64,000 bases of DNA, taken from contig CAWIPT010000007.1 in the NCBI GenBank assembly GCA_963838125.1, forward strand, positions 1,268,189 to 1,332,188, written 5' to 3'. This document shows, piece after piece, positions 32,151 through 34,767 of the stretch. Position 1 is the first letter of the stretch, and every line of letters starts with the position of its first letter. This DNA is from an uncultured Chloroflexia bacterium. Lineage in GTDB: Bacteria > Chloroflexota > Limnocylindria > QHBO01. The notes under the pieces were generated by a model. The model was not told the DNA's origin, searched no databases, and was given only the letters and a program-made list of their open reading frames with translations. A program made the translations under genes and the position numbers.

Positions 32151-32711
32151 ATGCGTTCGTCCCGACCGGTTCAGGCCACTCCGCTCCTGGCCGCGCTCCT
32201 GATCCTGTCGGGCTGCGGCTCGGGCGCGGGTCCTTCCCTGACATCGCCGGTGGCCCCAACGTCCACGTCGGCCGCGTCGGCGACGACGCCGACCGGTCCC
32301 CCAGCCAGCCCGCCGGCGACCATGCCGGTGGACCCAGACTCGACGCCCATACATCTCGTGAAGGACTGCAGCACGTTCACCGGGGAGATCCCGAGCTACT
32401 GCTCGATCTCGAGCTCCGACTACCCCGCGATTCCCGTCGGTGCCAAGGTCAACTATCTGGGTCCGCTCCTCATCAACCCGCACTTCCTCAGCAGCAACGT
32501 CGTCATCGACGACGCCCGCGGCAGCACGGCAACCGGCTTCTGCAGCTTCGACGCTCGACCAACCGAGGACCGCGGGCTCTGCACGTTCTGGGGAGGGACG
32601 GGTGCCCTCGCCGGCTTCACCGCGATCTTCGTCGTGTCGATCGACGCGACTGGCGAGTGGCACCTCGACGGCGAGTCCTACGGAACGTCGCCCAGCCCCA
32701 TGCCATCCTGA
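32151..32711 (+). CDS. secreted lipoprotein, uncharacterised family (paralogue 1)
   Basis: MRSSRPVQATPLLAALLILSGC lipobox, a Pro/Thr/Ser linker, then a ~110-aa domain homologous to the 34306..34767 product. Confidence 0.7.
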   Translation: MRSSRPVQATPLLAALLILSGCGSGAGPSLTSPVAPTSTSAASATTPTGPPASPPATMPVDPDSTPIHLVKDCSTFTGEIPSYCSISSSDYPAIPVGAKVNYLGPLLINPHFLSSNVVIDDARGSTATGFCSFDARPTEDRGLCTFWGGTGALAGFTAIFVVSIDATGEWHLDGESYGTSPSPMPS

Positions 32712-32726
32712 GGGCCACCGGATCGC

Positions 32727-33278
32727 ATGGCACTGTCTGCTGACGTGATGGGCCTCGAGGATTCCCCGTCGGTCGCCGGGCGGCCGCTCGGTGCAGCGGA
32801 GGTGGAGGGTGTCCACCAGCGCCGCGGTCGGGACCTATACGGCTTGTGCCGGCGGCTCGGGTTGAACGATGACGACGCCAACGATGCCGTCCAGGAGACG
32901 TTTCTGCGGATGTGGCATGAGTCCCTGCGCGGGGTCGTAATCACCGATCCCGAGGGCTGGGCCTTCCGGGTCGCGTACCGGCTCGCAATGGATCACCACC
33001 GCCTCGGCCGGTTGGCACGCTCGGTGGTCGACCGCCTCGCCTCGGCGACGAACGCCCGCGACCAGATCGATCCCGCCGATCGACTCTCGGTCTGGGCCGC
33101 TGTCGACCGCCTCCCGCCCCGGCAGCGCGCGGTCCTGTACCTCCGCTACCGCGCGGACTTGCCCTACGACAAGATCGCGGCCGTGATGGGCATCACGGCC
33201 AACGGCGCCCGCAACGATGCGAGCGTGGCGACGGCGTCCCTGCGCCGTCGCCTGCTGCGCGAGAGCGGACTCGGATGA
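32727..33278 (+). CDS. ECF (sigma-70 family) RNA polymerase sigma factor
   Basis: 183 aa. Region 2 (DDANDAVQETFLRMW, AWAFRVAYRLAMDHHR) and region 4 (LPPRQRAVLYLRYRADLPYDKIAAVMGITANGAR) are both present. Confidence 0.85.
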   Translation: MALSADVMGLEDSPSVAGRPLGAAEVEGVHQRRGRDLYGLCRRLGLNDDDANDAVQETFLRMWHESLRGVVITDPEGWAFRVAYRLAMDHHRLGRLARSVVDRLASATNARDQIDPADRLSVWAAVDRLPPRQRAVLYLRYRADLPYDKIAAVMGITANGARNDASVATASLRRRLLRESGLG

Positions 33279-34129
33279 CCGACCGACCGGCGACGGGCGA
33301 GCCACGCGCGGCACTCGAGCGATCACTCGAGCGATCGCTCCGCGAAGGTCCGGCCGACGAAGGCGGCTATCGCGCCGAGGCGGTCGACTTCAGCGCCGAC
33401 GCTCACGTCGAGTCGCGCCTCGGCCTTCGAACTGGCCGTCCCTCCGTCCGCCTTGCCCGCCGATCTCCGGGACCGATCACGCTATTCGCCTGGCTGGACT
33501 CGGTAGCGATTCTGCTTGTGGTGGTGGTCGCTGGCTTCGTGCTCCTGCAACGAACGGTCCCAGGCGGCTCGGGCGGATCGCCGCCGGCGACGGAGCGCGC
33601 GAGCGCGTCGCCGATTCAGGTCCCGCTCCTGACCGAGACGTTCGTGTCGACGCGGAACGGGTTCTCGGTGCGGTACCCGGCAGGCTGGTCCACGAAGGCT
33701 GCAACGACCAGCTGGTTACCGAACACCTTTGTCCCGATCGGCAACTCGGCGCTCGACGAGCTCAAGCTCCAGGGCGTGGCCCGACTGGTCGTCGCCTCCC
33801 AGCGGCTCGAGGCGGGGCAGACCGAGGCGTCCTGGATCGCGTCCTTCGGCCAGCAGTACTATCTCCGACGGTGCAGCGGCGATCACGCCGCCTGGCCGCG
33901 GATCACGGTCGATGGCAGATCCGGGTACCTCGACCTCAATGCCTGTCCCCTCCCGGCCGACGCGAACTTCTCGACGCCCGACGTCGCCTTCGATGTGATC
34001 GTGTTCGCCGCCGACCGCGTCTACAGGATCGGCCTCGACGGCGTCGTCGATCTCGGCTATTTCGAGGCCATCCTGGCCACCGTGCGCCTGGACCCGGCGA
34101 GCGCCATCGACCCGCCTGAGAGTCCCTGA
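33275..34129 (+). CDS. single-pass membrane protein, putative non-canonical anti-sigma / sensor partner
   Basis: The ATGA overlap with the sigma gene indicates coupling. One TM segment (ITLFAWLDSVAILLVVVVAGFVLL) and a ~190-aa extracytoplasmic domain. No HxxxCxxC zinc anti-sigma motif. Confidence 0.65.
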   Translation: MTDRPATGEPRAALERSLERSLREGPADEGGYRAEAVDFSADAHVESRLGLRTGRPSVRLARRSPGPITLFAWLDSVAILLVVVVAGFVLLQRTVPGGSGGSPPATERASASPIQVPLLTETFVSTRNGFSVRYPAGWSTKAATTSWLPNTFVPIGNSALDELKLQGVARLVVASQRLEAGQTEASWIASFGQQYYLRRCSGDHAAWPRITVDGRSGYLDLNACPLPADANFSTPDVAFDVIVFAADRVYRIGLDGVVDLGYFEAILATVRLDPASAIDPPESP

Positions 34130-34137
34130 CCTTCACC

Positions 34138-34165
34138 TTGTACGTTCAGTTCAGCTCCAACGTCT
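34138..34165 (+). promoter_or_regulatory. ECF-type promoter candidate, copy 2 (TTGTACGTT-N13-ACGTCT)
   Basis: The 9-nt and 6-nt blocks and the spacing are identical to 32089..32116. It lies between the membrane-protein stop and the paralogue-2 gene. Confidence 0.6.
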
Positions 34166-34305
34166 GTCAGGGTGTCAAAGCCCGCCGCTGGAGCGTCAGA
34201 TGCGTTCAGTCCGAGCCTGATCCTGATCGGTAGGACGAACGAACAGGACCGATGGTAAATGGCGCCGTCTCTCGTCCTCCTTCGGGAGGGCAAGGAGCTG
34301 GAAGG

Positions 34306-34767
34306 ATGAATAGGATGACTCGCTCAACGCGTTTCCCAACACGATTCGTCGTGGTTGCTGCCACGATCCTCGCGCTGGTCGCGCTCGCACCGGCGGCCGC
34401 GGCGGCATCTCCGCGCAGCGGAGACCTTCAGATCACGAAGGAGTGCTCTGAGTACAACCTCCTGCCCGGCGGGTTCTGCACGATCACCTCCTCGAACATC
34501 AATGCCATTAAGGCCGGCTCGCGGGTGGTGTACGCGTCGGCGCCTGATTTCGTTTCGCTGACGCTGGATAGCGACATCACCGTTGTCAGGCAGGGCAAGA
34601 GCATCGCCTACGGCCACGTCTTCCTCAATATCGCGACCGGCATCGGCACGGTCACCCTCTCGGGCGGGACCGGGCAGTTCCGCGGGTTCGACGCGAGCGC
34701 GGACGTGACGGCCACCGGTGGACCCAACTGGGCGTGGGACGGGACCTACAGCTTCAGTCCGCGCTGA
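34306..34767 (+). CDS. secreted protein, uncharacterised family (paralogue 2)
   Basis: MNRMTRSTRFPTRFVVVAATILALVALAPAAAAA signal peptide. The mature domain aligns with paralogue 1 (KECS..FCTITSS..AI..G..V.Y...GGTG.F.GF...W.DG.Y). The start is ATG 34306 or 34315, after AAGGAG. Confidence 0.7.
   Translation: MNRMTRSTRFPTRFVVVAATILALVALAPAAAAASPRSGDLQITKECSEYNLLPGGFCTITSSNINAIKAGSRVVYASAPDFVSLTLDSDITVVRQGKSIAYGHVFLNIATGIGTVTLSGGTGQFRGFDASADVTATGGPNWAWDGTYSFSPR

Follow-up and report, generated by a model that had tools for sequence, protein, structure and literature searches.

In the window analysed here (the whole stretch of 64,000 nucleotides from contig CAWIPT010000007.1 of assembly GCA_963838125.1, an uncultured Chloroflexia bacterium of soil), two small exported proteins, P1 and P2, flank an extracytoplasmic function (ECF) sigma factor and a membrane protein. 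These four genes, all co-directional on the plus strand, probably constitute a self-contained, horizontally mobile ECF cassette whose only outputs are extracytoplasmic small-molecule-binding barrels. P1 and P2 are true paralogues, and both genes are preceded by one and the same promoter-like motif, found nowhere else in the assembly. The cassette is an ECF system with co-encoded, predicted exported targets and is built around an uncurated protein family. The features of the cassette, in window coordinates, are as follows.

32090..32116, plus strand: promoter-like motif 1, TGTACGTT-N13-ACGTCT, of ECF-type -35/-10 form, 35 nt 5' of the P1 start codon
32151..32711, plus strand: P1, a predicted 186-aa lipoprotein with a Pro/Thr/Ser linker of ~45 aa, a C-terminal predicted barrel domain of ~115 aa and two Cys pairs
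32727..33278, plus strand: ECF sigma factor of 183 aa, with Sigma70_r2, Sigma70_r4_2 and TIGR02937 matches
33275..34129, plus strand: putative anti-sigma/sensor of 284 aa, with a short N-terminal helix, one transmembrane (TM) helix and a predicted PsbP/Mog1-like extracytoplasmic domain
34139..34165, plus strand: promoter-like motif 2, TGTACGTT-N13-ACGTCT, 10 nt 3' of the stop of the membrane-protein gene
34200..34220, plus strand: start remnant of the ancestral downstream paralogue, ATGCGTTCAGTCCGAGCCTGA, MRSVRA*, now within the P2 5' leader
34306..34767, plus strand: P2, a secreted, predicted barrel protein of 153 aa from the widespread P2-type subfamily; Sec signal peptide, single Cys pair

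The longest P1 reading frame opens at a GTG at 32130; the ATG at 32151 is the likelier start because a GAGGAG Shine-Dalgarno sequence lies at 32140-32145 and the orthologues begin MRSxRP. The P2 reading frame spans 34252/34306-34767, and the database copy of 153 aa begins MNRMTRS.

P1 and P2 are paralogues with different sorting signals

P1 and P2 share 31% identity over 126 aa by BLASTP (E 3e-9), and alignment of their subfamily profiles by hhalign gave a probability of 99.85% and an E value of 1.4e-30 over 144 columns. Both values rule out chance similarity. The two proteins are therefore true paralogues, as the initial annotation, made from the letters of the window, had proposed; the alignment on which it relied is statistically significant. 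They are the only two copies of the barrel family in the genome.

The sorting signals of the two proteins differ. In P1, the segment ILSGC at residues 17-21 fits the lipobox pattern [LVI][ASTVI][GAS]C, and the lipobox reads LSGC, LSAC, VSAC or LAAC in most of the orthologues shown (MSGC in one), with the Pro/Thr/Ser linker after it. The genome also encodes Lgt (222 bits) and LspA (121 bits). P1 has the features of a bacterial lipoprotein and is predicted to be lipidated. P2, on the other hand, carries a plain Sec signal peptide that ends in AAA/AS. The first Cys pair, C47/C58 in the 153-aa form of P2, is invariant across 49 aligned family members, and the extra pair of P1, C138/C151, is invariant within the P1 subfamily. 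The annotated LSGC lipobox and linker of P1, the plain signal peptide of P2, the conserved first Cys pair and the additional pair of P1 all held up in these comparisons. Other invariant residues of the 49-sequence alignment are Lys K45, Tyr Y76 and six Gly residues, including those of a G-G-T-G turn.

A shared promoter-like motif marks both barrel genes

Within the window, TGTACGTT-N13-ACGTCT occurs only at 32090 and 34139, against an expected count of 0.09. The whole assembly (2.2 Mb, 87% complete) contains two exact copies, both in the cassette, and none of the reversed control; a 12-base consensus derived from other loci, TGTACGTT-N14-CGTC, picks out the same two genome sites only. The GTAC and CGTC blocks are 17 nt apart, and this GTAC-N17-CGTC separation is the usual geometry of ECF -35 and -10 elements. 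ECF sigma factors 'usually autoregulate their own expression', and their regulators and targets are encoded alongside them (PMC7826278). No promoter of the sigma-70 type was found across 31500-35300.

The motif is also conserved in related cassettes (described below). In 28 distinct copies, 17 on the P1 side and 11 on the side of the downstream slot, the blocks TGTACG(T)T and CGTC(T) show practically no variation, in contrast to the spacers and flanks. The motif lies 5' of P1 wherever a locus still includes upstream DNA and is repeated just 3' of the membrane-protein gene, where it is retained whatever the slot holds: a third paralogue (P2'), P2 or unrelated genes. The distance from the -10 block to the start codon is ~35 nt both for P1 and for the ancestral downstream gene, and Shine-Dalgarno sequences precede the starts. 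Since the motif is shared by P1 and P2 and is unique to them in the genome, both look like the only targets of the sensor. The initial annotation had offered three roles for the paralogues, namely ligand or sensor, envelope effector, or output of the ECF system; the last of these is strongly supported by the shared, genome-unique motif and its conservation in orthologous cassettes. The motif is presumably the promoter read by the cassette sigma factor.

It is very improbable that the motif is instead the operator of another regulator or the promoter of another sigma factor, with the cassette sigma factor controlling other genes. The -35 block is GTAC, not the common GAAC, and further sites could be missing from a genome that is 87% complete, both of which would suit such an arrangement. 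However, the motif accompanies the sigma gene in all cassettes, across genomic contexts and taxa; it has ECF-like two-block spacing and lies 35 nt 5' of start codons that are preceded by Shine-Dalgarno sequences. In addition, it is missing from two distant sigma/PsbP-like pairs of ~32% identity (L129, L130), as would be the case if sigma factor and promoter specificity evolve together.

The ECF sigma factor and its membrane partner

Within its 183 aa, the sigma factor matches Sigma70_r2 (E 4e-10) and Sigma70_r4_2 (E 1e-10) in Pfam, and the NCBIfam model TIGR02937 with 58.3 bits against a cut-off of 42.9. With regions 2 and 4 only and a match to the ECF superfamily model, it is an ECF (group IV) sigma factor.

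The membrane protein has no family in Pfam or NCBIfam; Pfam gave a weak hint of PsbP_2 (E 0.3). Ten orthologues share the N-terminal segment ALERSLREGPPDExGYR, one TM helix and a well-conserved outer domain of ~170 aa. The AlphaFold2 (AF2) model, with a predicted local distance difference test (pLDDT) score of 69 overall and 80-95 in the outer domain, consists of a short cytoplasmic helix (residues 11-24), the TM helix (residues 73-92) and an alpha/beta sandwich outside the membrane. By Foldseek, the sandwich resembles CyanoP (2xb3, E 5e-6), PsbP, Tsi3, LpqN, DcrB and Mog1, with E values from 5e-6 to 1e-2. The predicted protein carries its PsbP-like domain on a TM helix preceded by a short cytoplasmic helix, and its gene is translationally coupled to that of an ECF sigma factor; this anti-sigma-like architecture belongs to no curated family. 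Its gene directly follows the sigma gene, the ATG overlapping the sigma stop codon as ATGA, and the pairing is kept in all cassettes. From this position, the translational coupling and the conserved pairing, we infer that the single-pass membrane protein is the anti-sigma factor.

A perfect 12-nt tandem duplication at 33312-33335 (CACTCGAGCGAT x2) doubles the residues LERS in the conserved N-terminal helix of the membrane protein. The unit is present as a single copy in L096, L102 and L005 and in more distant orthologues.

The cassette is conserved and its downstream slot is exchangeable

Conservation was assessed on 23 metagenome loci retrieved with the P1 profile, together with the loci L005 and L117. 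The order P1, sigma factor, membrane protein, downstream gene is kept wherever the contig is long enough, the sigma factor lies between P1 and the membrane protein in all cassettes, and the P1 orthologues are 59-94% identical. As a reciprocal test, 401 Chloroflexota genomes were searched with the membrane protein as anchor; this gave one further full orthologue (G411/L128, 48% identity), with P1, sigma factor, membrane protein, downstream paralogue and both motifs. The distant L129 and L130 pairs, already mentioned for their missing motif, also have no barrel genes.

In most cassettes, the slot downstream of the membrane-protein gene holds P2', a third subfamily of 136 aa that is a family member by hhalign (probability 99.5%) and whose intact form begins MRSVRIL in L097, L110, L099 and L005. 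The window is collinear with L097 and L110 (~93% identity) up to 34230, where the homology breaks; in L110 it is regained at 34817. Both the window and L117, an independent contig, still contain the first ~30 nt of P2' as a 6-codon remnant, and in each a P2-type gene with its own signal peptide follows. As judged from these sequence comparisons, P2 is a replacement of the ancestral P2' in a variable slot, in this lineage. Orthology of P2 with the downstream paralogue of related cassettes is ruled out by the homology break (34230-34817) and the old-start remnant, and an assembly chimera is ruled out by the same junction in L117, an independent Logan contig.

In two cassettes, the slot is occupied by unrelated genes (L096 2513-3004 and L102 2211-2564). 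One of them encodes a 163-aa secreted protein of no detectable family, and the other a 117-aa protein with RRDVLKDD(V/I)YT repeats. The suggestion that the L096 slot protein is a hidden member of the barrel family is unsupported, the hhalign match being to the signal peptide only.

The contrast between a constant P1 and a variable slot bears on the role of P1. An alternative account, possible although rather doubtful, is that P1 is central to the signalling itself: as a lipid-anchored co-sensor or modulator, it would bind the PsbP-like ecto-domain of the membrane protein and, with a ligand in its barrel or without one, set the threshold of sigma release, so that only the slot is a true output. 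P1 is always present and always first in the operon with the sigma factor and the membrane protein, at the identities given above. PsbP/Mog1-fold domains typically bind proteins or ligands, for example Tsi3, LpqN and DcrB, and lipoprotein modulators act in other envelope-stress systems, such as CseA of the Streptomyces sigE operon and RseB with RseA, to which a co-sensor P1 may be likened. MPT83 is likewise a 'core member' of the mycobacterial mpt83-sigK-rskA cassette (PMC7509140). On the other hand, proteins of the same family and predicted fold as P1 are encoded at loci that have no nearby sigma factor, and P1 and the slot gene have identical predicted promoters, which is what a member of the regulon should have. 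The L129 and L130 pairs have no barrel gene, so a sigma/PsbP-like pair can work alone; this does not discriminate between an output and a co-sensor.

The cassette is an accessory insertion

The P1-type gene is absent from 17 of 17 same-genus genomes. The same-genus genome G016 shows an empty site (L133 2027-2063) in which window position 31970 is joined to 34833 and the 2.86-kb cassette (31971-34832) is absent: the stop of the Mth938-like upstream gene (window 31970) is followed by 35 nt and then by tRNA-Arg(TCT). Metatranscriptome contigs with the same joined form exist, and in further congeners the insertion site is filled by 330-770 bp of different DNA. Conversely, in L117 the cassette (93% identity, window 32082-34773) lies between different flanks. 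The cassette is an accessory insertion, and its right border is the following gene.

34831..34905, minus strand: tRNA-Arg(TCT), with its 3' end toward the cassette (ARAGORN, Rfam)

A tRNA-targeted integrase island was considered and rejected: the region showed neither an integrase nor, at the borders of the cassette, a direct repeat of the tRNA 3' end. The initial annotation had missed this accessory insertion, the replacement in the slot, and the loose link of the wider P2-type family to ECF sigma factors that is described below.

RNA contigs were found for the cassette. Zero-mismatch contigs over P1 are present in four of four rhizosphere metatranscriptome runs of one study; the contigs of one run also cover the sigma gene, and those of another cover the membrane-protein gene. 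The earliest contig 5' ends are at 32138 and 32141, with nothing over 32001-32137, and these ends fit a transcription start just 3' of the -10 block. The RNA evidence is weak, being of low depth and consisting of contigs rather than reads.

P1 and P2 belong to an uncurated family with a known predicted fold

In a collection of 5.8 billion proteins, the P2 query matched more than 870 proteins and the P1 query 112; no precomputed Pfam domain is recorded for any of them, and wherever a source supplies a name it is 'hypothetical protein'. A profile search of 1.84 billion representatives gave 859 clusters at E<=1e-3, of which 576 reach E<=1e-10 (clusters at 50% identity, from soil metagenomes). The hosts are soil and sediment metagenome-assembled genomes of Chloroflexota (Limnocylindria), Actinomycetota, Acidobacteriota, Gemmatimonadota and Dormibacterota. 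Lipoprotein and plain-signal forms are both present in the P1 as well as in the P2-type subfamily. The members are mostly 140-190 aa long. Tandem two-domain fusions also exist, which marks the ~115-aa unit as an autonomous domain. Such fusions were seen in P0006, P0029, P0033, P0038, P0064, P0071 and P0237-P0243, and some of them join two different subfamily types.

Searches of Pfam, NCBIfam and PDB sequences returned nothing at threshold, whether with single proteins, with 49 members or with the family profile. Among the 49 members, neither the Dirigent model PF03018 nor the allene oxide cyclase (AOC)-type models PF06351 and PF18678 gave a match even at E<=10. DUF7155 (PF23710) matched 14 of the 49 weakly, the best at 21.3 bits (E 3e-4) against a gathering threshold of 27 bits, and these matches span only the signal peptide and first hairpin (residues 7-70). 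Membership in a curated family is ruled out by these searches, in which no Pfam, NCBIfam or PDB sequence match exceeded its threshold and DUF7155 stayed below its cut-off. In particular, the family is not placed in Pfam Dirigent because the defining match to the PF03018 profile was sought and not obtained.

The fold, on the other hand, is predicted to be a known one. An AF2 model of P2, built on the 49-sequence alignment, has a pLDDT of 86 overall and 94-97 along the mature part and forms an eight-stranded antiparallel barrel of the dirigent/AOC type, which is a prediction and not a solved structure. The top Foldseek matches in the PDB are dirigent proteins, namely PsPTS2 (8th2, E 5.9e-4), GePTS1 (6ooc), DRR206 (4rev) and AtDIR6 (5lal). 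Further matches are AOC (4h6a, E 3.6e-3, and 1z8k), the pyocyanin demethylase PodA (5k21, E 1.4e-2, TMt 0.52), the spirotetronate cyclases AbyU and Tsn15 (7pxo, 6nnw) and an uncharacterised Shewanella protein (2q03). The Foldseek probability is ~1.0 at an identity of 9-16%, and the template modelling (TM) score is ~0.5, normalised on a query that still contains the 36-residue disordered signal peptide. The disulfides are predicted to lie in the first hairpin and, in P1, in a later hairpin as well. The initial annotation had called the family unrecognised. This stands at the sequence level, where no HMM search placed both proteins in a well-characterised family; it does not stand for the predicted fold, which is the known barrel of plant dirigent proteins and AOC. 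According to the searches and the model, P1 and P2 represent a new sequence family inside the dirigent/AOC-barrel fold class, rather than a new fold.

Proposed mechanism of the cassette

Based on the results presented above, the following mechanism may be proposed. The PsbP-like single-pass membrane protein, as putative anti-sigma factor, would keep the ECF sigma factor inactive until an envelope signal frees it. The freed sigma factor would then read the two TGTACGTT-N14-CGTC promoters: promoter 1 would drive P1, sigma factor and anti-sigma factor, resulting in positive autoregulation, and promoter 2 would drive the downstream slot, here P2. The whole predicted regulon would consist of the cassette's own P1-led operon and the slot gene. 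P1 would be lipid-anchored through its long flexible linker and P2 would be soluble, both being exported, disulfide-stapled, eight-stranded barrels. Outside the cytoplasmic membrane, the barrels may bind or convert a small hydrophobic or aromatic compound, in a sense-and-neutralise or sense-and-capture scheme. By analogy with all those structural neighbours that have been characterised, action on a small hydrophobic or aromatic molecule outside the membrane is the most likely function of the barrels.

Several observations weigh against this mechanism. The shared motif could in principle be an operator for another regulator. Class I anti-sigma domains have about four N-terminal helices, often with HxxxCxxC; no zf-HC2 or class I anti-sigma domain was found in the membrane protein by Pfam or NCBIfam, and only one short helix precedes its TM helix. 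The likeness of the predicted fold to dirigent proteins and AOC is moderate (E ~6e-4, TM ~0.5, 14% identity), and no ligand, catalytic residue or partner enzyme was identifiable. No P2 transcript was seen at full length in the RNA contigs, which show presence and not absence, and carry-over of DNA may account for the contigs over the other genes. In addition, of 80 loci of the wider P2-type family, only 13 have an ECF sigma factor within 2.5 kb, an enrichment of about 4-fold relative to the outer flanks (p 0.007). This is a tendency and no rule, and the count rules out a strict link to ECF sigma factors throughout the family. Finally, in L003, L118 and L119-L121, P2-type relatives (62-75% identity) divergently adjoin a regulator of ~1116 aa of the BTAD-AAA-TPR (SARP/MalT-like) type, and this neighbourhood is a second recurrent regulatory context of the barrel family.

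The function of the barrels themselves may also be read differently. They may perform no small-molecule chemistry and be structural or protective envelope proteins, such as wall stress proteins or adhesins, whose likeness to dirigent proteins and AOC is only topological; we regard this as unlikely. It would agree with the moderate Foldseek scores, the identity of 9-16%, the missing Pfam AOC and dirigent matches, and the lack of biosynthetic or catabolic enzyme genes linked to the cassette. The FAS1-domain proteins MPT70 and MPT83, encoded in the same architecture, also have no known enzymology (PMC7509140). However, the invariant Lys and Tyr across subfamilies of ~30% identity suggest a conserved site beyond the scaffold. 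Furthermore, all functionally characterised top structural neighbours bind small hydrophobic substrates in the barrel lumen, these being the dirigent proteins, pterocarpan synthase, AOC, PodA, AbyU and Tsn15.

A farther-reaching version of the small-molecule reading is a tentative one, and improbable as it stands: the family would be a large, unrecognised class of extracytoplasmic, cofactor-free, dirigent/PodA-like enzymes directed against diffusible aromatic or redox-active compounds, and the cassette a portable sensor plus neutraliser whose slot, while staying behind the ECF promoter, is exchanged between lineages to retune the substrate range. AOC (PF06351), PodA, AbyU and Tsn15 have the same barrel topology as the P2 model by Foldseek; these cofactor-free proteins use the lumen of the barrel to act upon small hydrophobic or redox-active compounds. 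P1 and P2 show no sequence-level relationship to these AOC-barrel enzymes, the catalytic residues are not confidently alignable, and no biosynthetic cluster surrounds the cassette. If this reading were true, soil bacteria of at least five phyla would use such proteins to inactivate or transform plant phenolics, phenazines and quinone antibiotics.

Comparison with known systems

The closest architectural analogue of the cassette is mpt83-sigK-rskA, which is found in mycobacteria and other bacteria (Veyrier et al., PMC7509140). Both have the order lipoprotein, ECF sigma factor and membrane anti-sigma factor (putative in the cassette). A SigK binding site lies 5' of the lipoprotein gene (PMC7509140), where the cassette has its predicted promoter motif; a second, non-lipidated paralogue is also under the sigma factor, MPT70 in the SigK system (PMC7509140) and, as predicted, P2 here; and the regulon is very small in mpt83-sigK-rskA (PMC7509140) and predicted to be so in the cassette. 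However, mpt83-sigK-rskA exports FAS1-domain proteins, whereas the cassette exports predicted AOC/dirigent-like barrels that have no Pfam match. No cassette protein matched FAS1, RskA or zf-HC2 in Pfam, and the SigK model is absent among the 25 best NCBIfam matches of the cassette sigma factor. Unlike RskA, the membrane protein has a predicted PsbP-like ecto-domain, and unlike in mpt83-sigK-rskA, the second paralogue is inside the cassette, in a swappable slot. Judging by these comparisons, all component families differ from those of mpt83-sigK-rskA, and the architecture alone is alike.

Bacterial dirigent-like (DIR-like) proteins (PF03018) have been reported from 49 bacterial genomes, mainly of soil Actinobacteria and a few Chloroflexi, and mostly carry signal peptides (PMC9344732). 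Like the predicted cassette barrels, they are small (~120-aa mature), secreted, eight-stranded barrels, and most have a conserved Cys pair that staples two adjacent strands (PMC9344732). In DIR-like proteins, the staple joins beta3 and beta4 (PMC9344732), whereas the cassette barrels are predicted to staple the first hairpin and, in P1, a later hairpin as well. The likeness concerns design, not family. The identity of the cassette barrels to solved dirigent structures is ~14%, and regulation by a dedicated ECF cassette has not been described for DIR-like proteins.

A family covered by no curated library thus gains a predicted fold and a regulatory context. The ECF system itself is unusually clean, with one sigma factor, one atypical PsbP-type partner, two promoters and a predicted regulon of two exported barrels. 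All parts lie within 2.7 kb, and therefore the sigma-promoter specificity, the anti-sigma function and binding by the barrels are testable with heterologous reporters and purified proteins. If the barrels are enzymes, uncultivated soil bacteria would have dirigent/PodA-type chemistry at their cell surface. Otherwise, the cassette would still represent a second, independent case of a lipoprotein and a secreted paralogue under a private ECF sigma factor, as with SigK and MPT70/83.

Other contexts of P2-type genes and minor features

Besides the contexts given above, P2-type genes were seen next to other regulators. In L118-L121, the P2-type gene lies directly 3' of a gene for a GerE-type helix-turn-helix protein of 77-78 aa. 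In Acidobacteriota and Gemmatimonadota (L009/L006, L016, L019, L033, L048, L068, L072, L075), a P2-type gene, often encoding a lipoprotein, is divergent from an ECF-type sigma gene; in L006/L009, the sigma factor is of the PF07638 type and is followed by a Ser/Thr kinase of ~1000 aa with Tricorn/PD40 repeats. In the Chloroflexota loci L007, L042, L078 and L029, P2-type genes (single or tandem two-domain) lie 3' of a different ECF sigma factor and an anti-sigma factor of ~290 aa, whose N-terminus reads ...DRV(I/L)DAxLDQI... and whose C-terminal repeats are kelch-like (ATLLADGRVLVAGG).

The 3' end of the cassette has one further feature.

34772..34805, plus strand: perfect 13-bp inverted repeat, GAGGGATCCTGCC-N8-GGCAGGATCCCTC, directly 3' of the P2 stop

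With its 8-nt loop, this repeat is likely a terminator stem-loop, without a T-run. In the 140-nt P2 leader, Rfam gave no riboswitch or known RNA, its only match being the tRNA. The leader also contains a CCTCC-TTCG-GGAGG hairpin near 34273-34290, located 3' of the MRSVRA* remnant.

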